DNA of 64,000 bases from Gammaproteobacteria bacterium. Lineage in GTDB: Bacteria > Pseudomonadota > Gammaproteobacteria > Natronospirales > JAIVGZ01. Location: positions 556,437 to 620,436 of the forward strand of contig JBBEAN010000008.1 in NCBI GenBank assembly GCA_040882865.1. The letters are read 5' to 3'. Below, piece after piece: positions 42,710 to 52,513 of the stretch (its first letter is position 1; each line of letters starts with the position of its first letter). Position numbers and translations under genes: made by a program. The notes beneath the pieces are model-generated. The model had not been told where the DNA came from. It saw only the letters and a list, made by a program, of their open reading frames with translations, and made no database searches.

Positions 42710-43249
42710 ATGCTGAGCGCAATCGTCGCCATCACCACACTCGCCGCCGTGTTCGGGCTGCTGCTCGGCTTTTCGGCCGTGCGCTTTCGCGTCGATGGCG
42801 ACCCGATCGCCGATCAGGTCGAGGCCCTGCTGCCGCAGACGCAGTGCGGGCAATGCACGTTCCCGGGATGTCGCCCGTATGCGGAAGCGATCGTGCGCGG
42901 CGAAGCCGACATCAATCAATGCCCGCCGGGCGGCGAGGCGACCATCCGCGCGCTCGCCGACTTGCTCGACCGCGAACCAAAGGCCTTGAATCCCGACAAC
43001 GGCGCCGAGAAGCCGCGCGTGCTGGCGCTGATCGACGAGCCGCGGTGCATCGGCTGCACGCTCTGCATCCAGGCGTGCCCCGTCGACGCGATCGTCGGCG
43101 CGCCGAAACAGATGCACACGGTCATCGCCGCCGAGTGCACCGGCTGCGAACTGTGCCTGCCGCCCTGCCCGGTCGACTGCATCGACCTGGTGCCCGCCGA
43201 CGACGGAATCGCTGCGTGGCGGTGGCCGGAGCCCGACCATGGTGCATGA
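42710..43249 (+). CDS. rnfB: electron transport complex subunit RnfB/RsxB
   Basis: N-terminal TM helix, [10 protein letters not shown] cluster, and two 4Fe-4S ferredoxin motifs ([24 protein letters not shown]). Confidence 0.9.
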
Positions 43250-43256
43250 GCCGGGA

Positions 43257-43290
43257 AAATCGCGGCGCAAAGGCGCCGCTCCAACAGGTG
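43257..43290 (+). repeat. REP element, orientation A, intra-operon (rnfB-rnfC spacer)
   Basis: AAATCGCGGCGCAAAGGCGCCGCTCCAACAGGTG. Confidence 0.9.
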
Positions 43291-43295
43291 CCAGG

Positions 43296-44786
43296 ATGCA
43301 CGGCGGGTTGAAGCTTGAGCCGCACAAAGCCGAGTCAACGCGCGAGCCGATTCTGCGCGGCCCGCGTCCGAGCGAGCTCGTACTGCCGCTCGCACAGCAC
43401 ATGGGCGCCGCGGCGAAGGCGCGTGTCGCGGTCGGTGACCACGTCGCGCGCGGCCAGCCGCTTGCCGACGCCGACGGTTACCTGAGCGCGCCAGTGCATG
43501 CCCCTGCCTCAGGCACCGTTGTAGCCATCGAGCCGCGCCGCATCGCGCATCCGTCAGGCCTCGCGACGCCCTGCATCGTGCTCGAGACCGACGCCGCCGA
43601 CCATGACTGGGACGGCCTGCACGCGCACCCACAATGGCGCGACCTCACCCCCGAGCAGGTGCGAACGCTCGTGCGCGATGCCGGCATCGTCGGCCTCGGC
43701 GGCGCCGCGTTTCCGACCCACGTGAAACTCAATCCCGCGCTGACCGTCGACACGCTCGTCCTCAACGGCGCGGAGTGCGAGCCGTACATCAGCTGCGACG
43801 ACCGGCTGATGCGCGAGCGCGCGGCGCAGGTCGTCGCGGGTGCGGAGATCCTGCTGCACGCGCTGCAGGCAAAGCGGTGCGTGATCGCGATTGAGGAAGA
43901 CAAGCCAGAAGCGATCGCGGCCATCAAAACAGGAATCGCGGCGCAAAGGCGCCGCTCCAACACCAGCGACTTCGACCTGGCTTTGGAGGTGGTGCCTGCG
44001 ATTTACCCTCAGGGCGGCGAGCGGCAGTTGATTGCCACGGTGACGGGACGGCGGGTCCCGAGCGGCGGCTTACCGCTGAACGTCGGCGTCGTCTGCCACA
44101 ACGTCGCGACCGCGGCCGCGGTCGCCGCAGCGGTGCTGGACGGCGAGCCGCTCACGCGGCGCGTTGTCACCATGACCGGCGACGCGATGGCAGCACCGCG
44201 CAATGTCGACGCGCTGTACGGCACGCCCGTCTCAGCGCTCATCGCCGCGTGCGGTGGCTACGACGCGCCGGTGGACCGACTTGTAATGGGCGGTCCGATG
44301 ATGGGCTTCGCGCTGCCCGGCGACGACGTACCCGTCGTGAAGGCGATGAATTGCATCTTGGCGGAGTCCGATGCGATCGCGGCGCAAAGGCGCCGCTCCG
44401 TCAAACAGGTTCAGCCCTGCATTCGGTGTACGGCGTGTGAAGACGCGTGCCCGGCCGAGCTCCTGCCGCAGCAGCTGCACTGGTTCGCGCGCGCGCGGGA
44501 TTTCGACCAGGCCCGCGATCACGCGCTGTTCGATTGCATCGAATGCGGCGTCTGCGACGCCGTGTGTCCGAGCGACATACCGCTCGCCGCGCAGTTTCGC
44601 TGGGCGAAGGCAGAGATCCGCGCGCGCGATGACGAACGCAGTCGCGCCGAGCTCGCGAAACACCGCTTCGAGGCGCGCGCGCAGCGCCTCGCTGACGAGA
44701 AGCGCGAGCGCGAAGAACGCTTGAAGAAGAAACAGGACCCCGCCGCCATCGAAGCAGCGCTCGCACGCGTGAAGGCGAGCCGATGA
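43296..44786 (+). CDS. rnfC: electron transport complex subunit RnfC/RsxC
   Basis: GLGGAAFPTHVKL, NGAECEPYISCDDRLM, and two 4Fe-4S motifs (CIRCTACEDACP, CIECGVCDAVCP). ATG 43296 is preferred. The GTG at 43239 would read through the REP. Confidence 0.9.
   Translation: MHGGLKLEPHKAESTREPILRGPRPSELVLPLAQHMGAAAKARVAVGDHVARGQPLADADGYLSAPVHAPASGTVVAIEPRRIAHPSGLATPCIVLETDAADHDWDGLHAHPQWRDLTPEQVRTLVRDAGIVGLGGAAFPTHVKLNPALTVDTLVLNGAECEPYISCDDRLMRERAAQVVAGAEILLHALQAKRCVIAIEEDKPEAIAAIKTGIAAQRRRSNTSDFDLALEVVPAIYPQGGERQLIATVTGRRVPSGGLPLNVGVVCHNVATAAAVAAAVLDGEPLTRRVVTMTGDAMAAPRNVDALYGTPVSALIAACGGYDAPVDRLVMGGPMMGFALPGDDVPVVKAMNCILAESDAIAAQRRRSVKQVQPCIRCTACEDACPAELLPQQLHWFARARDFDQARDHALFDCIECGVCDAVCPSDIPLAAQFRWAKAEIRARDDERSRAELAKHRFEARAQRLADEKREREERLKKKQDPAAIEAALARVKASR
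43933..43964 (+). repeat. REP element, orientation A, in frame inside rnfC
   Basis: GAATCGCGGCGCAAAGGCGCCGCTCCAACACC, translated as (G)IAAQRRRSNT. Confidence 0.9.
44375..44410 (+). repeat. REP element, orientation A, in frame inside rnfC
   Basis: GATCGCGGCGCAAAGGCGCCGCTCCGTCAAACAGGT, translated as AIAAQRRRSVKQV. Confidence 0.9.
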
Positions 44787-45640
44787 ACGACGTGCAGGCC
44801 CTCATGACGAAGGTACTGGTCGCGCTGATTCCGGCCGGCGCAATCCACGTCTGGCTGTTCGGCCCCGGCCTGCTGATCAACTGCACGATTGCCGTCGCCG
44901 CAGCACTCGCGGCAGAAGCCTTGATGCTCAAGCTGCGCGGACGCCCGCTCGTCCCCGCGTTGCTCGACTTGAGCGCGCCCGTCACTGCGGTCCTGCTCGC
45001 GTTTGCGCTGCCACCACTCGTGCCTTGGTGGATTCCGGTCGTGGGGACGCTGTTCGCCATCGTCGTCGCGAAGCAACTTTACGGCGGCATCGGCTTCAAC
45101 CTGTTCAACCCCGCGATGGCGGGTTACGTCGTCTTGTTGATTTCGTTTCCAATCGAGATGACACGCTGGCCGGGGCCGTTCGATGGCGTCACCGCGGCGA
45201 CCCCGCTCGATCAAGTCAACGAGGTCGCGACCATTGCGGGCGGCTGGGAATGGCTGTCGCTTGCGGTGCTGGCGGGCGGGCTTTGGCTCCTGTCCCAGCG
45301 CGTGATTCGATGGCCGATCCCGGTTGCGGTGCTCGGCAGCCTCACGGTCATCGCGACCGTGTTCTGGCTCCTCGACCCAGGTCGCTTTGCCTCACCGGCG
45401 TTCCATCTCGCGGGCGGTGCGACGATGCTGTGCGCGTTCTTCATCGCGACGGACCCGGTCACCGCCGCGACGACGCCACGCGGCCGCATTGTCTACGGCG
45501 TCGGTATCGGCACGCTGATCTGGGTACTGCGTAACTTCAGTGTGTATCCCGATGGCGTCGCGTTCGCCGTCCTGCTGATGAACATGGCGGCACCGGCGCT
45601 TGACCACTTCCTCAGACCGCGGGGCGCGGATGCGCGCTGA
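44783..45640 (+). CDS. rnfD: electron transport complex subunit RnfD/RsxD
   Basis: FNPAMAGYVVLLISFP and the FMN attachment region FFIATDPVTAATTPRGR. Shorter (285 aa) than enteric homologues as I recall them, mainly in a periplasmic loop. Confidence 0.85.
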   Translation: MNDVQALMTKVLVALIPAGAIHVWLFGPGLLINCTIAVAAALAAEALMLKLRGRPLVPALLDLSAPVTAVLLAFALPPLVPWWIPVVGTLFAIVVAKQLYGGIGFNLFNPAMAGYVVLLISFPIEMTRWPGPFDGVTAATPLDQVNEVATIAGGWEWLSLAVLAGGLWLLSQRVIRWPIPVAVLGSLTVIATVFWLLDPGRFASPAFHLAGGATMLCAFFIATDPVTAATTPRGRIVYGVGIGTLIWVLRNFSVYPDGVAFAVLLMNMAAPALDHFLRPRGADAR

Positions 45641-46250
45641 CGTTCGCAACGCGCTCGTCGCCGCCACGGTGCTCGCTGCATTCGCACTGGCGGGGACGGC
45701 GCTCGTCACGACCGCGGAGCACTCGACTCGAGCGCGCATCGCGGACAATGAGCGACAGGCGTTGCTGGAATCGCTCGCGCTCATCGTGGATCCTGCACGC
45801 TACGACAATGATCCGCTGGCCGACACAATTCAGCTCGCCGACGTGCGGCTCGGCGATGGTCCAATCACGGTGTTCCGTGCGCGTCGCGCCGACGAACCGG
45901 TCGCAGCCGTTTTCGCCGTGACCGCGCCGGATGGCTACGCCGGGCCCATCCGCATCCTCGTCGCCGTTAACGTAGACGGCACGGTCTCCGGCGTGCGCGT
46001 GATCGCGCACCGCGAGACGCCCGGGCTCGGCGATCCGATCGACGCGTCACGCTCTGACTGGATCCACACCTTCGCCGGGCGCTCACTCGGCGACCCGCCG
46101 CGCGCGCGCTGGACCGTGCGTAAGGACGGCGGCGCATTCGACCAATTTACCGGCGCGACAATCACCCCGCGCACGGTCGTGCACGCCGTCCGCCGCGCGC
46201 TAGAATTCTTCGAGGAGAATCAGGAGGCGCTCTTTGCAACAAGCAACTGA
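45630..46250 (+). CDS. rnfG: electron transport complex subunit RnfG/RsxG
   Basis: N-terminal TM helix, HRETPGLGD, and the FMN-binding [15 protein letters not shown] 45630 overlaps the rnfD stop. Confidence 0.85.
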
Positions 46251-46905
46251 AGGTCTCTGGCGCAACAATCCGGCGCTCGTGCAGCTGCTTGGGCTGTGTC
46301 CGCTGCTCGCGGTTACCGGCACCGCGGTCAACGGGCTCGGTCTCGGGCTCGCGACGCTGTTCGTGCTCGTCGGTTCGAATCTCGTCGTGTCGCTTATCCG
46401 CGGCGCGCTGAGACCCGAAGTGCGGATTCCAATTTTCGTGCTCGTGATTGCGGCCTTGGTCACGACCGTCGAGCTCACGATGAACGCGTTCTTCCACGAG
46501 CTGTACACGACGCTCGGAATCTTCATTCCGCTGATCGTCACGAATTGCGCAATCATCGCGCGTGCAGAGACGTTCGCGTCACGCAACGGCCCGTTACGGT
46601 CGGTGCTCGACGGCCTGTGGATGGGCAGCGGCTTCGCACTCGTGCTCGTGACGCTCGGCGCGGTGCGAGAAATCGTCGGTCACGGCACGCTGTTCGCGGG
46701 CGCCGAACATCTGTTCGGACCCGCCGCCGCCGATCTCGAGCTTCACTGGACGGCGTACCGCGGCTTCCTGCTCGCCGCGCTGCCGCCGGGCGCATTCTTC
46801 GGGCTCGGGCTCCTGATTGCAGCGAAGAACGCGATCGATGCAAGACGGCCCGCGCGAGCTCCGGTGCGGACTCGCGTCACCGCCTCGGACGCAGCGGCCC
46901 TCTGA
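46234..46905 (+). CDS. rnfE: electron transport complex subunit RnfE/RsxE
   Basis: [35 protein letters not shown]. Confidence 0.9.
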
Positions 46906-47546
46906 TGGGACCGGTCTCGCGCACACGTCTGTTTGAACGCCTCAAAGCGCTCGACCCCGCCCCGACGACCGAGCTGGTGTACCGCACGCCGTTCGAACTT
47001 CTGGTCGCCGTCATCCTGTCTGCGCAAGCGACGGACATCGGCGTCAACAAGGCGACCGTAAAACTTTTCGCAGTCGCGAACACGCCGGACGCGATTCTCG
47101 CGCTCGGCGAGGCGCGGCTGAAGCGCTTCGTGAAGACCATCGGCCTGTTCAATACCAAGGCGAAGAACATCATGAAGACTTGTCGCATCCTCGTCGATGA
47201 GCACGGCGGCGAAGTGCCGCGCAACCGCGCGGCGCTCGAGCGGCTGCCAGGCGTCGGTCGCAAGACCGCTAACGTAATCCTGAATACGGCATTCGGCGAG
47301 CCCACCATCGCGGTCGACACACATATCTTCCGCGTGTCGAACCGCACCGGTCTTGCGCCCGGGAAAAACCCGCTCGAGGTGGAGCGCGCGCTGATGCAGC
47401 GGGTTCCGCCGCGCTATCGCAAGGACGCGCACCACTGGCTCATCCTGCATGGGCGCTACACCTGTAAGGCCCGCAAGCCGCTGTGTGGCGACTGCGTCAT
47501 CGCGGACCTGTGCGAATGGCCGGGGCGGGTGGTCGGTGTTCGGTAA
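46905..47546 (+). CDS. nth: endonuclease III
   Basis: HhH-GPD (LPGVGRKTANVIL) and the 4Fe-4S motif CKARKPLCGDCVIADLC. ATG 46905 overlaps the rnfE stop. Confidence 0.9.
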   Translation: MGPVSRTRLFERLKALDPAPTTELVYRTPFELLVAVILSAQATDIGVNKATVKLFAVANTPDAILALGEARLKRFVKTIGLFNTKAKNIMKTCRILVDEHGGEVPRNRAALERLPGVGRKTANVILNTAFGEPTIAVDTHIFRVSNRTGLAPGKNPLEVERALMQRVPPRYRKDAHHWLILHGRYTCKARKPLCGDCVIADLCEWPGRVVGVR

Positions 47547-47964
47547 CAACCGGAACGCAATGCGCGCACGGTACCTTGCGATCTGGCGCAAGCTTCAGGC
47601 GCGCGCGCCGCTCGAGCCGCTGGAAGCGGTCATCGCGTCGGTCATCGAGGACCACCCCGAATACCACGCGCTGTTCGAAAAGGGTGAAGTCGCCCTCGCT
47701 GAAGAATGGTCGCCCGAGGGTGGCCAGTCGAATCCATTCCTCCACCTCGGCCTGCACATCGCCGTCCGCGAACAGGTCGCGGCCGACCGACCGCTCGGCG
47801 TACGTGGCGTTTTCGAGTCGCTCGCGCGCGCGGCCAGCGACCCTCTCGAAGCCGAACACCGCATGATCGAATGCCTCGCCGCGACGCTGTGGGAAGCCGG
47901 CCGCAGCGGCGTCCCGCCGGATGAGGCCGCGTATCTTGAGCGCCTGCGCAGGCTGAAATGCTGA
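47536..47964 (+). CDS. DUF1841 family protein
   Basis: (M)FGNNRNAMRARYLAIWRKLQ...EDHPEYHALFE is DUF1841-like. GTG 47536 overlaps the nth stop. Alternative start ATG 47560. Confidence 0.6.
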   Translation: MFGNNRNAMRARYLAIWRKLQARAPLEPLEAVIASVIEDHPEYHALFEKGEVALAEEWSPEGGQSNPFLHLGLHIAVREQVAADRPLGVRGVFESLARAASDPLEAEHRMIECLAATLWEAGRSGVPPDEAAYLERLRRLKC

Positions 47965-47998
47965 AACGGTGAAATTTAATGCCGCGGTGCCGGTCTTC
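47953..47998 (+). promoter_or_regulatory. candidate ECF-type promoter and triple TGAAA repeat upstream of the RiPP operon
   Basis: CTGAAATG-CTGAAACG-GTGAAATT (47953-47976). TGAAAT (47970-75) is followed after 17 nt by GTCTTC (47993-98). GGAGG RBS at 48014-18. Confidence 0.3.
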
Positions 47999-48025
47999 TA
48001 AGTACCCCCAACTGGAGGAAACACC

Positions 48026-48361
48026 ATGACGAAGTCCCGTAACTACACGCTGGCGCTCGCCGTCGGCACCGCCCTGGCCGCCGCGCCCGCAGCGGCCGCC
48101 GCCAACCCGTTCGGCCTCTCCGACCTCGGCGCCGGTTACATGCTCGGCGCGGCAGCAGCGGGCGACCCGGCGCCGGCAGCGAAAGACGCCGAAGGCAAAT
48201 GCGGCGAGGACAAGGCCAAGAAGGACGCCGAGGGCAAGTGCGGTGAAGGCAAGTGCGGTGAGGACAAGGACAAGGCCGAGGCGAAGGATGGCGAGGGCAA
48301 GTGCGGTGAGGAGAAAGACAAGGCCAAGACGAAAGATGGCGAGGGTAAGTGCGGGGCCTGA
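48026..48361 (+). CDS. secreted Cys-repeat RiPP precursor (five EGKCG motifs; HvfA/oxazolin-like metallophore precursor)
   Basis: Signal peptide MTKSRNYTLALAVGTALAAAPAAAAA. After it comes NPFGLSDLGAGYML, then a K/E/D-rich tail with EGKCG x5 (Cys codons at 48200, 48239, 48254, 48302, 48350), ending EGKCGA-stop. Directly followed by DUF692 and DUF2063 genes. Confidence 0.8.
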   Translation: MTKSRNYTLALAVGTALAAAPAAAAANPFGLSDLGAGYMLGAAAAGDPAPAAKDAEGKCGEDKAKKDAEGKCGEGKCGEDKDKAEAKDGEGKCGEEKDKAKTKDGEGKCGA

Positions 48362-49158
48362 ACGGCACCGGCCTTGGCCTGCGCCGGCCGTTGATCGAGC
48401 CCTTGCTCGAACAGCGGCCGGCGCAACTTTCGTTTCTGGAAGTCGCACCCGAAAACTGGCTCGGTATCGGCGGCCGACTGGGCCGGCAGCTGCGCGCGCT
48501 GTCAGAGCGTTACCCGCTCGCGAGCCACGGCCTCTCGCTGTCGCTCGGGGGTCCCGGCCCGCTCGATGAGGCCTTCGTGCTCGAGCTCAAACGGTTTTTC
48601 GACGAATACGGCATCACGACGTGCAGCGAGCACCTGTCCTACTGCAGCGACGATGGCCAGCTTTATGACCTCCTTCCGATTCCCTTCACCGAGGAAGCCG
48701 TCCACTGGGTCGCCGCGCGCATTCGCCGCGTCGAAGCCCTGCTAGAACGCCCGCTCGCCATCGAGAACGTGTCGTACTACGCAGCGCCTGGCGCCGAGAT
48801 GCGCGAGATCGAATTCGTGAACGCGGTCCTCGAGGAAGCGGATTGCCGACTGCTGCTCGACGTGAACAACGTGCTCGTCAATTCGGTCAACCACGCGTAC
48901 GACCCGGTCGAGTTCATCCACGCTTTGCCCGCGGACCGCGTCGAGTACTTGCACATGGCCGGGCACACCATCGAGGCCGAAGACCTGCGCATCGATACAC
49001 ATGGCAGCGACGTGCCGGACGAGGTGTGGCGATTGCTCGCCGTCGCGTACGCACACTGCGGGCCACTGCCGACGCTGCTCGAGCGCGACTTCAACATCCC
49101 TCCGCTCGACACGCTGCTCGCAGAAGTCGACCGCATCGTCGAAGCACAGCGCGCATGA
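48349..49158 (+). CDS. DUF692 / MNIO family peptide maturase (MbnB-HvfB-BufB like)
   Basis: Motif series SHGLSLSLGG, SEHLSYC, AIENVSYY, LLLDVNN, YLHMAGH, IDTHG (TIM-barrel metal-ligand pattern of DUF692). GTG 48349 overlaps the precursor by 13 nt. Confidence 0.85.
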   Translation: MRGLNGTGLGLRRPLIEPLLEQRPAQLSFLEVAPENWLGIGGRLGRQLRALSERYPLASHGLSLSLGGPGPLDEAFVLELKRFFDEYGITTCSEHLSYCSDDGQLYDLLPIPFTEEAVHWVAARIRRVEALLERPLAIENVSYYAAPGAEMREIEFVNAVLEEADCRLLLDVNNVLVNSVNHAYDPVEFIHALPADRVEYLHMAGHTIEAEDLRIDTHGSDVPDEVWRLLAVAYAHCGPLPTLLERDFNIPPLDTLLAEVDRIVEAQRA

Positions 49159-49871
49159 GTCTGCGCGCCGACCAACTCGAATTCGCCGCGCACTTGCGCG
49201 ACCCCGACGGACACCCGGCCCCGCCGGGCCTCGAGCCACGCCGCGTCGCCGTGTACCGCGGCCTGCTGTTCAAGAACGTGCTCAGCTTCATGCAGAACGG
49301 TTTTCCGGTCATCCGCAAGACGCTCGGCGACGACGCGTTCGCGACGCTCGTGCGCACATGGTTCGCGCAACACCGCGCGACGACGCCGATTTTTCCGCGC
49401 ATGCCGGGCGAGCTCATCGCATGGCTGGCCGATACACCGCGCGCCGCCGCGGGTGCGCCGCCGTGGCTCACAGAGCTTGCGCACTACGAATGGATCGAAC
49501 TGGAACTCCAACTGGATCCGGCGGAAATCGACGTCGACGGCGTGGACGCCGACGGCGATTTGCGCATGGGGGTGCCGGTGTTATCGCCGCTCGCGCGCGT
49601 CCTCGCGTACGATTGGCCGGTCCACCGGATCGGACCGGATTACCGTCCCGAGACGCCGGAACCGACCACCCTGCTCGTGTACCGAGACCGCAGTGACGGC
49701 GTGCGCTTCATGGAGACCAACGCGATGACGCACGCCCTGTTGGCGCTGTTGCGGGACAACGAGACCGCGACCGGTGAGACGCTGCTGCGCGGGCTCGCGG
49801 TCCGTGATGCGGCGCTGTCTCTGCTCGAGTCGCTGCGTGAGCGCGACATCATCGCCGGGGCACGGTCATGA
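49155..49871 (+). CDS. DUF2063 family partner protein (HvfC/BufC-like)
   Basis: N-terminus MSLRADQLEFAAHLRDP...RVAVYRGLLFKNV... is typical of DUF2063. ATGA overlaps on both sides. Confidence 0.8.
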   Translation: MSLRADQLEFAAHLRDPDGHPAPPGLEPRRVAVYRGLLFKNVLSFMQNGFPVIRKTLGDDAFATLVRTWFAQHRATTPIFPRMPGELIAWLADTPRAAAGAPPWLTELAHYEWIELELQLDPAEIDVDGVDADGDLRMGVPVLSPLARVLAYDWPVHRIGPDYRPETPEPTTLLVYRDRSDGVRFMETNAMTHALLALLRDNETATGETLLRGLAVRDAALSLLESLRERDIIAGARS

Positions 49872-50350
49872 CCATTCTCGTCGTGGTTCGCGATTGTCTG
49901 GAAAAGGTCGGCACGTGGTTGCCACAGCTTGCGCTCCGGCTGCTGCTCGCCTGGGAGTACGGCGAAGCGGGCGTGACCAAGCTGCGCGGTGAGAACTGGT
50001 TCGGGCACGTGCAGGACAAGTTCCTGTTCCCGTTCAACTACGTGCCGCCGGCGATCAGTTGGACGCTCGCGACCTGGACGGAAATCATCGGCGCGCTCCT
50101 GCTCGTCATCGGTCTCGGAACGCGCTTCGTCAGCGTTGCGTTCATCGGGCTCACGGTCGTCGCCATCGGCGCCGTCCATTGGCCCGACCAGTGGTCAACG
50201 ATCGGTGACCTGCTGAGCGGGTACACGATTTCCGACCAGGGTCATGGCAATTTCAAGTTGCCGGTCATATTCATCGTCATGCTCCTGCCCTTATTGTTCT
50301 GGGGAGCAGGCAAGGCGAGCGTCGACCATTGGATCCGGACGCGTGACTGA
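49868..50350 (+). CDS. DoxX family membrane protein (BufD/GigT-like)
   Basis: 160 aa, 4 TM helices. Coupled to the DUF2063 gene by an ATGA overlap. Confidence 0.8.
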   Translation: MTILVVVRDCLEKVGTWLPQLALRLLLAWEYGEAGVTKLRGENWFGHVQDKFLFPFNYVPPAISWTLATWTEIIGALLLVIGLGTRFVSVAFIGLTVVAIGAVHWPDQWSTIGDLLSGYTISDQGHGNFKLPVIFIVMLLPLLFWGAGKASVDHWIRTRD

Positions 50351-50855
50351 CAAGCGTCGCAAGTTCGGGACCCTCGTCGCAGCGCTCCTGCCGCAGCTGT
50401 ACCGGTATGCCTACTGGTTGAATCAGGACGGGCAGATCGCCGAGGACGTGGTGCAGGACGCATTGTTACGCGCGTGGCGCGCAATCGATTCCCTGAAAGA
50501 CGAGACGCGGGCGAAGGCGTGGTTGCTCACCATCGTCCGGCGGGAGCACGCGCGTCGGTTCGAGGGCGTGCAGCCGGTCTTCGTCGACCTCGGCGCGCTC
50601 GAACTCGCGGACACGGCCTATCCGGCGGAGGCCGCTGCCGACGCCGCTGACTTGCGGCGGCTCATTGCTGAACTCGAGCCCGCCTACCGCGAACCGCTGG
50701 TGTTACAGGTCGTCGTCGGTCTGTCCTGCGAGGAGATCGCCGAACTGCTGGACTTGAACAAAGCGACGGTGCTGACGCGCTTGTTCCGCGCCCGGCGCCT
50801 TTTGACCCAACGCGTGGCTGCGCCCGTCGTCACGGACGCAGGAGGAATCCTATGA
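50343..50855 (+). CDS. ECF (group IV) RNA polymerase sigma factor
   Basis: Region 2 (DVVQDALLRAWRAIDSL, WLLTIVRRE) and region 4 HTH (LSCEEIAELLDLNKATVLTRLFRARRLL). GTG 50343 overlaps the DoxX stop by 8 nt. Confidence 0.85.
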   Translation: MTDKRRKFGTLVAALLPQLYRYAYWLNQDGQIAEDVVQDALLRAWRAIDSLKDETRAKAWLLTIVRREHARRFEGVQPVFVDLGALELADTAYPAEAAADAADLRRLIAELEPAYREPLVLQVVVGLSCEEIAELLDLNKATVLTRLFRARRLLTQRVAAPVVTDAGGIL

Positions 50856-51547
50856 ACTGTCTCGAGTATCGGCGCACGCTGTTGGAGCGGCCCACCGACC
50901 CCGGTAGCGGCGCGCGCGAACACCAGCTCGCGTGTCGCGCCTGCGCCGACTGGACAACCCAGCAGCAACGGTTCGAACAGCGGCTCGCGTACGCCCTGTC
51001 CGTTCCGGTTCCCGAGGGCGTCGCCGAGCGCGTGATGCTGCACGCCGCCTGGCGCTCACCCCGTCCGCATTGGCAAACCATCGCCGCGACGGTCGCCGCC
51101 GTCACGCTCGGCGCACTACTTGCTATCCAGCTCGCCGACCAGCCGGTGCTCGCACAATCGGTGCTCACGCACGTGTACGACGAACCAGACCTGCTAATAC
51201 CGGGCAGCGAGCCCGTCGATCCCGCACGACTGAAGGCGGTGCTGGAGCGCGTTGGCGGCACACTCGACGGCACAATCGGTTCGGTGCTGCACGCGGGACT
51301 TTGCCCGGTCGGCGGCAAACTCGCCGCGCACCTCGTCGTCGCTGGTGAACACGGACCGATTGCGGTGCTCGTGATGCCGGAATACGGCGTCGCGACAAAC
51401 ACAGCCGTCGGTGACGACAAGCTGCACGGCGCAATCGTGCCGGTTGGCCGTGGCAGCGTCGCGGTCATCGGTTTCCGTGGAGAATCGCTTGATGTGCTCG
51501 CAGAGCGCGTGCGCACTCAACTAAGTATCGCTGACCATGGCGCTTGA
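50852..51547 (+). CDS. anti-sigma factor (zinc-binding HxxxCxxC, single TM; DUF3379-like)
   Basis: MNCLEYRRTLL...EHQLACRAC (H-x3-C-x2-C), TM helix WQTIAATVAAVTLGALLAIQL, and a periplasmic C-domain. ATGA overlap with the sigma gene. Confidence 0.8.
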   Translation: MNCLEYRRTLLERPTDPGSGAREHQLACRACADWTTQQQRFEQRLAYALSVPVPEGVAERVMLHAAWRSPRPHWQTIAATVAAVTLGALLAIQLADQPVLAQSVLTHVYDEPDLLIPGSEPVDPARLKAVLERVGGTLDGTIGSVLHAGLCPVGGKLAAHLVVAGEHGPIAVLVMPEYGVATNTAVGDDKLHGAIVPVGRGSVAVIGFRGESLDVLAERVRTQLSIADHGA

Positions 51548-51932
51548 CCCACGACTCGCGGCGGACACGCTGTCCGTTGCGCAACTCCCGCTTTGCAGTG
51601 TGCGGCTGATGAATGACGCGCGTTACCCGTGGATCATCCTGGTTCCGCGCGTCGAGGATGCCGTCGAGCTGCTCGACCTCTCGGATGCCGACCAACAGCG
51701 CCTATACGACGAAATCAGGCAGTGCGCGCGCGTGCTACAGGAACACACAAGCGCCGACAAACTGAACATCGCTGCCCTCGGTAACGTCGTGCGCCAGCTG
51801 CACGTCCACGTCGTCGCGCGCTTTCACGACGACGACGCGTGGCCGAAGCCGGTCTGGGGCGTGCACCCGGCGGTCCCCTATGAGGACGACGCCGCGGCAA
51901 CGCTGATTCAGGCGCTGGCGACGCGCCTATGA
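51537..51932 (+). CDS. HIT family hydrolase
   Basis: Histidine triad QLHVHVVARF. 131 aa. Overlaps the anti-sigma gene by 11 nt. Confidence 0.8.
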   Translation: MALDPRLAADTLSVAQLPLCSVRLMNDARYPWIILVPRVEDAVELLDLSDADQQRLYDEIRQCARVLQEHTSADKLNIAALGNVVRQLHVHVVARFHDDDAWPKPVWGVHPAVPYEDDAAATLIQALATRL

Positions 51933-52013
51933 ATCGCGGCGCGAAGGCGCCGGCCTATTCGCGGCGCAAAGGCGCCGTTTATTCGCGGCGCAAAGGCGCC
52001 GCTCCTACAGTTG
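51931..52013 (+). repeat. three tandem REP units (orientation A), 24-26-nt period
   Basis: GAATCGCGGCGCGAAGGCGCCGGCCT / ATTCGCGGCGCAAAGGCGCCGTTT / ATTCGCGGCGCAAAGGCGCCGCTCCTACAGTTG. Only the last unit keeps the CTCCTACAG tail. The array begins inside the HIT stop codon (TGA 51930-32). Confidence 0.9.
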
Positions 52014-52021
52014 CGGCGCGA

Positions 52022-52513
52022 TCATTTCAACGCGGTCTGCCAGACCTTCAATTTGTCGGCGTACCGCGTCGTGTTCGCGGGGCTCGACGACGGCAGCACG
52101 TGCACGTCGAGTCCGAACGACGCAACGTGCGCGACGTGTTTCGCCGCGGTCTTGCCGTTGAAGCAAGCGGTCACGAGCTTCGGGCAGCGCGCGATGAGCC
52201 GCGCAAAATCGTTGAACTCCGCGTCGCGGATGTTGCCGTCGAGGCTGCCCTCACGCCGACATCGACCGATCACGTCCCACAAGCCGATGCCGGCGCGCTT
52301 CAACGCGGCGAGCCGATGTCGATACGGCATGCCATGCAGTTCGACGCCGACTGAATCACCGACGAGTCGCCAGAACTGATTCTGCGGGTATGCGTAATAC
52401 TGCTGCGCCGCGAGCGACGCCGCGCCGGGGAAGCTCCCCAGCACCAATACGCGCGTGTCACGCGTGACCACCGGTAGGAGACCCACCAACACCTTGCTCG
52501 TTTTCGAACGCAC
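52022..52513 (-). CDS. DNA-deoxyinosine (hypoxanthine) glycosylase, UDG family 6-like
   Basis: RVLVLGSFPGAASLAAQQYYAYPQNQFW and the C-terminal LPSSSPAN are typical. GTG 52513 gives 163 aa. The 214-aa track ORF would overlap the divergent gene. Confidence 0.6.
   Translation of the reverse strand: MRSKTSKVLVGLLPVVTRDTRVLVLGSFPGAASLAAQQYYAYPQNQFWRLVGDSVGVELHGMPYRHRLAALKRAGIGLWDVIGRCRREGSLDGNIRDAEFNDFARLIARCPKLVTACFNGKTAAKHVAHVASFGLDVHVLPSSSPANTTRYADKLKVWQTALK

Follow-up and report, generated by a model that had tools for sequence, protein, structure and literature searches.

The open reading frame at 48026-48361 encodes, with a probability that we put at about 85%, an HvfA-type precursor of a ribosomally made, modified and exported Cu(I)-binding peptide whose expression is probably driven by an ECF sigma factor. 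The precursor belongs to an already described family (HvfA/oxazolin/fontiphorin) and is not new; in print, the class goes by the names Buf_EGKCG, oxazolin, fontiphorin and, for the Lys-Cys group, 'captophorin'. A sequence-only reading of this DNA had proposed a Sec-exported RiPP precursor in which EGKCG is the site of modification and metal ligation through the adjacent DUF692 enzyme, and this matches the published biochemistry of the family. Obtained in this analysis were the sequence features, the assignment of four genes to their families, the degree to which the Cys context, the leader box and the HvfB specificity residues are conserved, and the compactness of the operon. Published work on relatives supplies the chemistry, the Cu(I) binding, the ECF control and the part that the signal peptide plays in recognition. 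The following features were located in the 64-kb window, that is, the whole stretch of DNA that was analysed.

47969-47996, + strand: candidate ECF-sigma-type promoter, GTGAAATTT (-35-like), 13-nt spacer and CGGTCT (-10-like)
48014-48018, + strand: Shine-Dalgarno sequence GGAGG at a distance of 7 nt from the hvfA ATG, identified by reading the DNA
48026-48361, + strand: hvfA-family precursor gene, 111 aa plus stop, ATG at 48026, TGA at 48359-48361
48026-48103, + strand: predicted Sec-type signal peptide, residues 1-26, called by manual criteria and alignment to homologues
48104-48139, + strand: post-signal box N-P-F-G-L-S-D-L-G-A-G-Y, general form [NS]-[PV]-F-x4-L-x2-G-Y
48182-48355, + strand: core, residues 53-110, five EGKCG modules, predicted target Cys 59, 72, 77, 93 and 109
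48191-48205, 48230-48244, 48245-48259, 48293-48307 and 48341-48355, + strand: EGKCG modules 1-5, from sequence reading
48349-49158, + strand: hvfB, MNIO (DUF692) maturase, 269 aa, overlapping hvfA by 13 nt
49155-49871, + strand: hvfC, DUF2063/RRE partner (PME type 1), ATGA overlap with hvfB (4 nt)
49868-50350, + strand: hvfX, DoxX-family membrane protein, ATGA overlap with hvfC
50343-50855, + strand: ECF sigma factor, 170 aa, GTG start at 50343, overlapping hvfX by 8 nt
50852-51547, + strand: DUF3379 protein, 231 aa, probable membrane anti-sigma factor (Pfam DUF3379, E 2.9e-35)
51537-51932, + strand: HIT-family gene, last of the overlapping string (Pfam HIT, E 2.7e-16), overlapping the DUF3379 gene by 11 nt
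52034-52046: terminator-like hairpin downstream of the HIT gene

The family assignment is based on all four core genes (hvfA, hvfB, hvfC and hvfX), which score above the curated NCBIfam cut-offs, and Pfam agrees. Compared with the HvfA and bufferin families, the precursor passed NF050137 ('HvfA family oxazolone/thioamide-modified RiPP metallophore') with 60.2 bits (cut-off 19.5) in three matched stretches, and a Pfam search of it gave no match, including none to DUF2282. It stayed below the cut-off of the HvfA equivalog NF050188 (41.8 vs 95 bits, with only residues 66-110 aligned), indicating a family member and not an orthologue of H. influenzae HvfA. A homology search with the precursor returned 2621 proteins at E<=1e-3, several of them named HvfA family. 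HvfB, deposited at NCBI as the same 269-aa protein (MEX0900407.1), matched NF003818 ('HvfB family MNIO-type RiPP peptide maturase') with 409.7 bits (cut-off 360) over profile positions 2-264 of 264, as well as Pfam PF05114 (E 1.4e-101) and PDB 3BWW (E 3.9e-71). Its residues R12-R13 and D247-F248 are the counterparts of R15/R16 and D249/F250 of FonB, which were shown to determine the preference for Glu at position 1 and for Lys/Gly on either side of the Cys and to provide the catalytic base (PMC12668002), and they are at least 97% conserved in 79 relatives. HvfC scored 252.6 bits (cut-off 142) against NF050145 ('HvfC family RiPP maturation protein'), with matches to Pfam DUF2063 and NGO1945_C and to PDB 3DEE (E 7.4e-5); both 3BWW and 3DEE originate from hvf-type clusters (PMC12668002). 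HvfX reached 145.9 bits on NF050144 ('HvfX family', cut-off 80) and matched Pfam DoxX. The sigma factor gene, whose start was taken as called on an identical contig, scored 203.8 bits against NF009170/PRK12517 (cut-off 197) and matched Sigma70_r2 and Sigma70_r4_2. Together with the DUF3379 and HIT genes, these form a seven-gene operon in which all six gene junctions overlap. Several overlapping long open reading frames lie on both strands around the locus, as expected at high GC, and the window as a whole gave no match in Rfam and tRNA scans.

Direct reading of 48026-48361 gave the same 111-aa protein as reported earlier. Cys59, 72, 77, 93 and 109 are its sole Cys residues and each lies within E-G-K-C-G, as had been claimed; equally, the composition of core residues 53-110 (K16 G12 E10 D8 A6 C5 T1) agrees with a core devoid of aromatic or large hydrophobic residues, and the protein does end one residue past the last motif, with Ala. 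The Cys-to-Cys spacing is 13, 5, 16 and 16, so that the modules are arranged as 1+2+1+1. In a six-frame translation of the 64-kb window EGKCG occurred five times, always inside the hvfA frame, against a composition expectation of 0.01. At the DNA level the module unit is GAR-GGY-AAR-TGC-GGN. A shared unit had thus been recognized correctly, but the exact consensus given before was slightly too strict because module 5 has GGT and is followed by GCC instead of GA. The core contains two tandem repeats, a 15-nt unit in 2.6 copies at 48230-48268 and a 48-nt unit in 2.2 copies (89% matches) at 48248-48354, the latter an internal duplication whose 16-aa unit holds one EGKCG. An AlphaFold2 model of the precursor (50-sequence alignment) had a mean pLDDT of 49.9 and no secondary structure, suggesting that the precursor is probably disordered before modification.

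The proposed function would have failed if the EGKCG Cys were not conserved in homologues, and it withstood this check. Around 843 repeat-region Cys of 120 homologues, the context was 92-99% conserved: E at -3 in 97%, G at -2 in 94%, K at -1 in 92% and G at +1 in 99%. The number of modules ranged from 1 to 13 among relatives. The suggested change in module number is well supported as an evolutionary pattern; there is no evidence of rapid slippage of the phase-variation type. Most relatives have paired modules, with a mode of 6 or 8, and the Cys number here is odd (5); isolated single EGKCG modules are common and strictly conserved in relatives.

The predicted signal peptide has the n-region MTKSR with a charge of +2, followed by the hydrophobic stretch YTLALAVGTALAAA (by manual criteria a core of 14 residues), Pro21 and an Ala-rich c-region. 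Ala-x-Ala sites occur after residues 24-26, ahead of NPF, as among the homologues, in which the A-x-A site lies 0-3 residues ahead of NPF; cleavage would follow Ala24, 25 or 26, the exact site being ambiguous within the Ala run. The N-terminus carries neither a twin-Arg motif nor a lipobox Cys. In 170 of 175 relatives the box F-x4-L-x2-G-Y stands ahead of the first Lys-Cys, and it is found in 43 of 47 metagenome precursors. In the 50-sequence alignment F29 and Y38 were invariant and N27, P28, L34 and G37 at least 90% conserved. The box may be the site at which the RRE-containing partner HvfC docks and, as the recognition element of HvfC-type partners is still undefined, it is a candidate open to testing. 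Single Ala substitutions ahead of the FonA core still allowed modification (PMC12668002), and the box is therefore unproven as a recognition element. Full-length HvfA with its signal peptide was modified far better than cleaved HvfA (bioRxiv preprint on the revised chemistry).

From these features and the work on relatives, the following course of events can be proposed. The peptide would be translated with its Sec signal peptide and be bound in the cytoplasm by a heterodimer of HvfB, a multinuclear non-haem iron oxidase, and HvfC, the DUF2063/RRE partner, through the signal peptide and probably also the F-x4-L-x2-G-Y box. HvfB would then carry out a four-electron oxidation of the Lys-Cys of each EGKCG to a 5-thiooxazole (-4 Da each), and Sec would export the modified peptide, with removal of the signal peptide just ahead of NPF. 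The disordered, Lys- and acid-rich product would carry as many as five N,S-bidentate thiooxazole ligands and sequester Cu(I) in the periplasm. Expression would probably be driven from 47969-47996 by the operon's own ECF sigma factor, with the DUF3379 membrane protein restraining it.

The candidate promoter begins 5 nt past the stop codon of the DUF1841 gene and ends 30 nt ahead of the hvfA ATG. A single match to GAAAYWT-N12-16-CCGGTCY was found in the 64-kb window, compared with 0.01 expected, and a scan over 47400-52400 found no sigma-70-like promoter. The motif was also present directly upstream of hvfB or hvfA in the related loci L016, L019, L023, L028, L029, L034, L035, L041, L050 and L055. 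Its geometry resembles that of the neisserial sigmaE-operon promoter, GTMAGBWTT-N12-13-CGTCTAAH (PMC2893595), and in H. influenzae (PMC7907618) and Neisseria (PMC2893595, PMC3240639) an ECF sigma factor controls the hvf-type clusters. We infer that the element functions as an ECF promoter. The DUF3379 protein gave a weak match to an anti-sigma NCBIfam model. It has Cys3 and His24-x3-Cys28-x2-Cys31, a ZAS-like arrangement with the layout of MseR/RsrA (PMC2893595), followed by a hydrophobic segment at about residues 74-95, and is thus a probable membrane anti-sigma factor that may complete a circuit with the sigma factor and the promoter. A literature search for DUF3379 retrieved no relevant work.

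More tentatively, the locus could be a self-contained sensor-effector unit of a sort so far undescribed for the EGKCG group. With its ZAS-like Cys3/H-x3-C-x2-C head, the membrane-spanning DUF3379 protein might respond to copper or oxidant stress in the periplasm, or even to how much metal the peptide has bound, and let go of the co-encoded ECF sigma factor, which would then activate transcription from the conserved GTGAAATTT-N13-CGGTCT promoter. The true docking element for HvfC would be the near-universal F-x4-L-x2-G-Y box, retained by the peptide after export and acting jointly with the signal peptide. DUF3379 sensing, a promoter of this type and docking through the box find no mention in the main texts of the family papers searched.

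The physiological role of the family, copper or hypochlorite/oxidative stress, is still debated (PMC12668002, PMC7907618). The same cassette and export route could serve mainly in defence against oxidants (hypochlorite) or thiol stress and not in copper buffering, with the thiol heterocycles and DoxX forming a periplasmic redox system triggered by a redox-sensitive ZAS-type anti-sigma factor. The hvf cluster of H. influenzae is induced by HOCl in an RpoE2-dependent manner (PMC7907618), the neisserial sigmaE operon co-regulates msrAB (PMC2893595, PMC3240639), the DoxX protein of mycobacteria has been connected with thiol and oxidative stress, and the Cys3 and H-x3-C-x2-C residues of the DUF3379 protein are arranged as in the redox-sensing RsrA/MseR. 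However, Cu(I) binding by modified HvfA, fontiphorin and gonophorin is tight, the related bufferins protect against copper, and meningococcal sigmaE expression was unaltered by oxidative stimuli (PMC2893595). We consider oxidant defence as the main role unlikely, and the two roles are not mutually exclusive.

Every EGKCG Lys-Cys in HvfA (6) and FonA (7) is modified with a loss of 4 Da, and the products bind Cu(I) (PMC11252979, PMC12668002). Conversion of Cys to 5-thiooxazole (absorbance at about 305 nm) with Cu(I) binding is known only for HvfA, FonA and NgoA. In vitro, FonBC left a one-repeat substrate unmodified (PMC12668002), and three of the five modules here are isolated singles; therefore, full five-fold modification of this peptide is only inferred. 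The same observation lends some weight to an unmodified, secreted Cys/Lys-rich metal binder, or to a peptide modified only in the tandem EGKCGEGKCG (Cys72 and Cys77) with the three singles left as plain thiols. Such views can also draw on the weak binding of 2-3 Cu(I) by unmodified HvfA and on heterologously made HvfA, which was a mixture with 0-6 modifications. On the other hand, translation of hvfA is coupled to that of a complete HvfB-HvfC pair whose specificity residues are conserved, and the strict conservation of isolated modules in relatives argues that single modules are substrates, which makes both versions quite improbable. The 'up to five ligand pairs' per peptide foreseen from the sequence stand as five bidentate ligands but not as five copper sites, since the HvfA authors suggest, by analogy with methanobactin, about one Cu(I) per two heterocycles.

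As for the nature of the heterocycle, the product was first assigned as oxazolone/thioamide in the original HvfA report (PMC11252979), and this methanobactin-like wording is kept in the NCBIfam names NF050137 and NF050188. Two groups have since reassigned it to 5-thiooxazole (PMC12668002; bioRxiv 10.64898/2026.06.05.730506 and 10.64898/2026.07.17.739211). Oxazolone/thioamide pairs are incompatible with alkylation-assisted HMBC NMR on fontiphorin, oxazolin and gonophorin (PMC12668002), the original authors themselves moved oxazolin to 5-thiooxazole, and HvfB reached only 31.7 bits on the MbnB model TIGR04159 (cut-off 325), so that we regard this older chemistry as highly improbable here. Membership in the methanobactins was rejected, given this score, the DUF2063 partner and a precursor with a signal peptide, and membership in the bufferins, given the 269.7 bits of HvfB on the MNIO_BufB model (cut-off 310) and a precursor without any Pfam match. 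In methanobactin (MbnA/MbnB/MbnC) an MNIO also turns Cys of a ribosomal peptide into an N,S copper ligand, but the precursor has a true leader and no Sec signal, the ligand is oxazolone/thioamide, the partner is MbnC and not a DUF2063 protein, and the role is copper acquisition, not sequestration. Features shared with the bufferins Buf1 (DUF2282) and Buf2 (PMC11626156, PMC12452194) are Sec-signal precursors, a closely related MNIO and a PME1 partner, copper ligands of the 5-thiooxazole type, the buffering of copper in the periplasm and, frequently, clustered DoxX and sigma genes; unlike the precursor here, those of the bufferins are folded non-repetitive domains with other Cys contexts. From Buf_EGKCG 'type 1' (PMC12452194) the precursor differs in its irregular spacing, its 48-nt single-EGKCG unit and the lack of predicted secondary structure, and the beta-helix model published for regular 17-residue-repeat members is unsupported for it (pLDDT 49.9).

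A spurious low-complexity frame in GC-rich DNA can practically be dismissed: the overlapping long frames on both strands and the absence of the exact precursor from a protein collection look-up, which we treated as a gap in the collection and not as evidence against the gene, are outweighed by the curated family match with thousands of homologues, the conserved position upstream of hvfB, the strong GGAGG ahead of the ATG, modules that vary among themselves solely at synonymous third-codon positions, the presence of the hvfA frame in the gene calls on the identical Logan contig, and a C-terminus that is retained in an approximately 82%-identical relative. A cluster look-up found two short contigs at about 82-85% nucleotide identity, both ending at or inside the repeat region.

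The hvfB GTG at 48349-48351 overlaps the TGC codon of Cys109 at 48350-48352, exactly as described before. It is the first start codon past the in-frame stop of the hvfB frame, and the next in-frame start, a TTG at codon 15, would remove the conserved G8-L-G-x-R12-R13; the genes called on the identical Logan contig include the same hvfB frame. As a functional feature of the family, the overlap of start and Cys codon was rejected: the gap between precursor and hvfB was positive in 53 of the 54 genome loci having both a precursor and an hvfB start and in 47 of 47 metagenome loci. AAG-TGC necessarily contains GTG, and the overlap, which is lineage-specific, is therefore an incidental result of having Lys-Cys codons in a tightly packed operon.

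Alongside the bufferins and methanobactin, three further published systems are close to the locus. Oxazolin/HvfA of H. influenzae (PMC11252979) shares the Sec signal, an N-region, C-terminal EGKCG repeats and MNIO, DUF2063/RRE and DoxX neighbours, and its repeat Cys are reported as modification sites, with Cu(I) binding and ECF sigma control. It has three regular AEGKCGEGKCG double modules (6 Cys) and a disulfide pair in the N-region, in contrast to five Cys in a 1+2+1+1 arrangement and an NPF...GY box in an N-region devoid of Cys; doxX is first in the Haemophilus cluster and fourth here, and the Haemophilus anti-sigma factor is a 67-aa cytoplasmic protein encoded elsewhere, whereas the DUF3379 gene lies within the operon. 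Fontiphorin (FonABC) of Fontimonas thermophila (PMC12668002) likewise comes from a gammaproteobacterium and shares EGKCG-type repeats, an Arg-Arg/Asp-Phe MNIO and a PME1 partner; Nevskiales-type relatives have the related leader box SVFQxxDLGAGYM, and the HvfB here shares 66% identity with that of a Fontimonas sp. MAG locus (L062). The seven sites of FonA are grouped as 2, 3 and 2, and the fon cluster is without DoxX, sigma and anti-sigma genes. FonABC is the best biochemical model for the action of HvfBC here. The Neisseria cluster NMB2140-NMB2145/gonophorin (PMC2893595, PMC3240639, PMC12668002) combines DoxX, precursor, MNIO and DUF2063 genes with its own ECF sigma factor and ZAS-motif anti-sigma factor, the hvf-type cluster, sigma and anti-sigma genes forming one operon (PMC2893595, PMC3240639). 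This sigmaE operon controls its own expression through a promoter whose -35 element is 9 nt long, whose spacer measures 12-13 nt and whose -10 element contains GTCT; we liken the candidate to it, with GTGAAATTT in place of GTMAGBWTT as the -35. The neisserial anti-sigma factor MseR is small and cytoplasmic, whereas the 231-aa DUF3379 protein has a predicted membrane segment and a C-terminal domain.

The significance of the result is mostly one of annotation and goes little beyond naming the peptide: an unannotated or 'hypothetical low-complexity' peptide of an uncultured gammaproteobacterium becomes a thiooxazole copper-binding RiPP precursor, and the earlier reading proves sound. New details are the F-x4-L-x2-G-Y box, the range of 1-13 modules, the 48-nt duplication, the lineage-specific overlap, and the sigma and DUF3379 genes behind an ECF-type promoter. 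Dominated by isolated single EGKCG modules, the precursor is a presumed natural substrate that tests the in-vitro finding that one repeat is insufficient, and the conserved ECF-type promoter with the adjacent DUF3379 partner gives a handle on regulation. The by-products (leader box, single-module substrate, promoter and DUF3379 gene, precursor-less hvfBC(X) loci) may be of modest use to specialists.

Among 80 related genome loci, 55 had the order precursor-hvfB-hvfC, and 25 had no KCG-repeat frame upstream of hvfB, so that a precursor always adjoining hvfB was rejected. No Lys-Cys-rich or Cys-Lys-rich frame was found within about 4 kb in these 25 loci; in L019 and L074 the upstream sequence was too short to judge the presence of a precursor. 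Many related hvfBC(X) loci are thus without an adjacent precursor, with Lentisalinibacter, L016 and L035 as examples. Among the matches listed in genome and metagenome contigs, no HvfB relative exceeded 68% identity. In locus L069, the variant EGNCG takes the place of EGKCG.

The genes were assigned on the basis of NCBI curated model cut-offs, and all four core genes scored above theirs. In order, the seven genes of the string are:

48026-48361, +, precursor (hvfA): NF050137 'HvfA family oxazolone/thioamide-modified RiPP metallophore', 60.2 bits (cut-off 19.5)
48349-49158, +, hvfB: HvfB family MNIO maturase model, 409.7 bits (cut-off 360)
49155-49871, +, hvfC: HvfC family model, 252.6 bits (cut-off 142)
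49868-50350, +, hvfX: HvfX family DoxX model, 145.9 bits (cut-off 80)
fifth gene, +, ECF sigma factor: PRK12517, 203.8 vs. 197 bits
50852-51547, +, sixth gene, DUF3379 protein: Pfam DUF3379
51537-51932, +, HIT-family gene: shares 11 nt with the DUF3379 gene and is apparently the last of the operon

The Pfam matches were concordant (MbnB_TglH_ChrH for hvfB, DUF2063 with NGO1945_C for hvfC, DoxX for hvfX), and HvfB and HvfC matched the PDB entries 3BWW (E 3.9e-71) and 3DEE (E 7.4e-5), both attributed to hvf-type clusters (PMC12668002). The database held 2621 relatives of the precursor at E ≤ 1e-3, several already named HvfA-family, the best being merely 55-66% identical. Three other identities scored below their cut-offs: a bufferin (BufB model, 269.7 vs. 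310 bits), an orthologue of the H. influenzae-type HvfA (equivalog model, 41.8 vs. 95 bits), and a methanobactin (MbnB model, 31.7 vs. 325 bits). The locus thus falls within the EGKCG/HvfA family, without being a bufferin, a methanobactin, or an orthologue of the studied protein. We conclude that it belongs to the HvfA/Buf_EGKCG/'captophorin' Lys-Cys family and works like it. The family itself is already known; the interpretation given by the sequence-only reading is supported, with corrections to the chemistry, the stoichiometry, and the significance of a gene overlap.

The translated precursor was identical to the protein read earlier, and the same ORF is called on a Logan contig that matches window 43933-51985 exactly, with a Shine-Dalgarno GGAGG 7 nt 5' of its ATG. 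As claimed, its only Cys residues (59, 72, 77, 93, and 109) all lie inside E-G-K-C-G, the core is devoid of aromatic and large hydrophobic residues (residues 53-110 are K16 G12 E10 D8 A6 C5 T1 only), and a single Ala follows module five. Six-frame translation of the whole window gave five EGKCG, every one in this ORF (0.01 expected from composition). Conservation of the module Cys had been set beforehand as a point on which the sequence-only reading could be refuted. Around the 843 Cys located past residue 30 in the 120 best homologues, E(-3) was conserved in 97%, G(-2) in 94%, K(-1) in 92%, and G(+1) in 99%, so the reading was not refuted.

At the DNA level, the modules share the unit GAR-GGY-AAR-TGC-GGN and differ at synonymous positions only. 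Tandem Repeats Finder reported a 15-nt unit (x2.6, 48230-48268) and a 48-nt unit (x2.2, 89% matches, 48248-48354), indicating that the last two modules and their spacers are a fairly recent 16-codon duplication. The 120 best homologues carry 3 to 12 Cys (modes 6 and 8) and 1 to 10 EGKCG, and among the matches listed, precursors 5' of hvfB in related loci carry 1 to 13 KCG. Modules are grouped in singles, doubles, or triples among the relatives; the 1+2+1+1 arrangement found here, with its odd total, is a minority one and also differs from the studied HvfA/FonA-type examples. The ~82%-identical relative L162 has the same ...GEGKCGA end with a spacer 6 nt shorter, and the three modules of a 66%-identical peptide (P0029) are EGKCG, EGSCG, and EGQCG. 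Expansion and contraction are therefore a real evolutionary pattern, as had been proposed, but no evidence was found for rapid slippage. Some relatives combine EGKCG modules with EF-hand calcium-binding domains, either by fusion or as an interruption (P0003, P0069, P0105, P0106, P0111; L018, L020, L021, L026), a previously described type (PMC12452194). Spectribacter acetivorans has a variant EGNCG/EGSCG precursor whose Cys lack the preceding Lys (L069:3696-3956), and in one Nevskiales MAG the precursor slot is taken by a signal-peptide-bearing peptide that is rich in Ala/Glu/Pro and devoid of Cys (L060:2167-2391).

The leader-like 'NPF...GY' segment noticed earlier is real and strongly conserved. 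A box [NS]-[PV]-F-x4-L-x2-G-Y, beginning 0-3 residues past the predicted signal-peptidase site, lies N-terminal to the first Lys-Cys; 170 of 175 relatives and 43 of 47 metagenome precursors have it there. Residues F29 and Y38 do not vary across an alignment of 50 sequences. The string 'NPF' was not found in the main text of the family papers searched for it; the studied examples have a disulfide in the N-region instead. In vitro, full-length HvfA with the signal peptide still attached outperforms cleaved HvfA by far as a substrate, so the signal peptide plays a leader-like role. For HvfA modification, an intact N-region is 'optimal' (PMC11252979), and no residue preceding the FonA core is singly essential (PMC12668002). 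At least 97% of 79 relatives keep R12-R13 and D247-F248 of HvfB; in FonB, the counterparts of these residues determine the selection of Glu at position 1 as well as of the Cys-flanking residues and supply the catalytic base (PMC12668002).

HvfA of H. influenzae has six Cys in three AEGKCGEGKCG and FonA of F. thermophila has seven; co-expressed with MNIO and partner, they lose 4 Da per repeat Cys, gain a ~302-305-nm chromophore, and bind Cu(I) with high affinity (PMC11252979, PMC12668002). The product, first assigned as oxazolone/thioamide, has since been reassigned to 5-thiooxazole by two groups including the original authors (PMC12668002; bioRxiv 10.64898/2026.06.05.730506, 10.64898/2026.07.17.739211), so the NCBIfam names are out of date. 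From the analogy with methanobactin, the authors of HvfA suggested about one Cu(I) per two heterocycles; fontiphorin, the FonA product, binds up to four Cu and aggregates (PMC12668002). The proposal that each EGKCG is a modification and metal site thus agrees with the biochemistry of the relatives, but the chemistry needs correcting, and the proposed five ligand pairs would be five bidentate ligands and not five Cu sites. For this peptide, we would expect five thiooxazoles at most and tight binding of some two to three Cu(I), or intermolecular networks, with the caveat for full modification that three of the five modules are isolated and FonBC left a one-repeat substrate unmodified (PMC12668002). 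The beta-helix model concerns members with regular 17-residue repeats (PMC12452194), whereas AlphaFold2 predicted no structure for this precursor (pLDDT 49.9).

The hvfB GTG (48349-51) indeed shares nucleotides with the TGC of Cys109 (48350-52). No earlier start follows the in-frame stop, and the next one in frame, at codon 15, would cost the conserved G8-L-G-x-R12-R13; the NCBI entry MEX0900407.1 ('MAG: Gammaproteobacteria bacterium') is the same 269-aa HvfB, and the gene calls on the identical Logan contig agree. The special significance given to the overlap did not hold. All junctions from hvfA to the HIT gene (48026-51932) overlap, by 13, 4, 4, 8, 4, and 11 nt, making this one of six, and as AAG-TGC contains GTG, nothing beyond translational coupling is needed to explain it. 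The overlap is kept in two near relatives (L162 and L163), but among the matches listed the hvfA-hvfB gap is positive in 53 of 54 genome loci with a precursor and a located hvfB start and in 47/47 metagenome loci with a precursor. A terminator-like hairpin (52034-52046) follows the string. The passages of the hvf family papers examined gave no link between HIT proteins and hvf clusters.

Upstream of hvfA, no sigma-70-like promoter was found nearby, and GTGAAATTT-N13-CGGTCT (47969-47996) is unique in the 64-kb window; in layout it agrees with the promoter of the neisserial sigmaE operon (PMC2893595). Ten related loci have the same motif directly 5' of hvfA or hvfB. The general ECF-type form is (G)TGAAAT/GTAACAT - about 13-16 nt - CCGGTCT (L016:3825, L023:3864, L028:3866, L029:837, L034:3862, L035:3825, L041:3910, L050:2999, L055:3490); in L022 a copy lies 5' of hvfX instead. 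Three tandem 8-nt copies, GCTGAAAT / GCTGAAAC / GGTGAAAT, span the DUF1841 stop codon (47952-47975); only the third is correctly spaced to CGGTCT, and the first two look like spare -35-like boxes. The DUF3379 protein has Cys3 and His24-x3-Cys28-x2-Cys31; a stretch around residues 74-95 is hydrophobic, and its C-terminal domain comprises ~135 aa. It shares the ZAS anti-sigma layout of MseR/RsrA, here on a predicted membrane protein (PMC2893595); a literature search on DUF3379 turned up a single paper, on an unrelated matter. Control of hvf-type clusters by ECF sigma factors is established for H. influenzae (RpoE2, HOCl-induced; PMC7907618) and for Neisseria, whose NMB2140-2145 form one autoregulated operon including sigma and anti-sigma genes (PMC2893595, PMC3240639). 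The present operon differs from the studied examples in gene order and in the DUF3379-type partner of its sigma factor. Among 160 loci listed with HvfB 57-68% identical to ours, a sigma gene was detected in two, as weak matches (30-33% identity) that, unlike here, are not immediately 3' of hvfX.

The operon neighbours are rnfC/D/G/E, nth, and a DUF1841 gene (43239-47964). Among the matches listed, nth(-DUF1841)-hvf recurs in 24/80 genome and 33/80 metagenome loci (e.g., L004, L016-L018, L022, L023), indicating an insertion site conserved across several gammaproteobacterial lineages. A KCG-repeat ORF 5' of hvfB is absent from 25 of the 80 genome loci listed (L016, L017, L022, L023, L028, L029, L034, L035, L041, L050, L077, and 14 more); in all 25, a Lys-Cys-rich or Cys-Lys-rich ORF is likewise missing from the surrounding ~4 kb. 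Eleven show the order nth-DUF1841-promoter-hvfB, with ~90-210 nt from DUF1841 to hvfB. The substrate of these loci must be elsewhere in the genome, or absent. The only two near-relative contigs recovered (L162:1-98, L163:1-5; ~82-85% nucleotide identity) both end in or at the precursor repeats, pointing to a tendency of assemblies to break at this spot. Two loci whose hvf clusters are of a typical gammaproteobacterial kind bear the odd labels 'uncultured Halobacteria archaeon' (L026) and 'Pontibacter sp. JAM-7' (L076); these records are probably mis-binned or mis-named.
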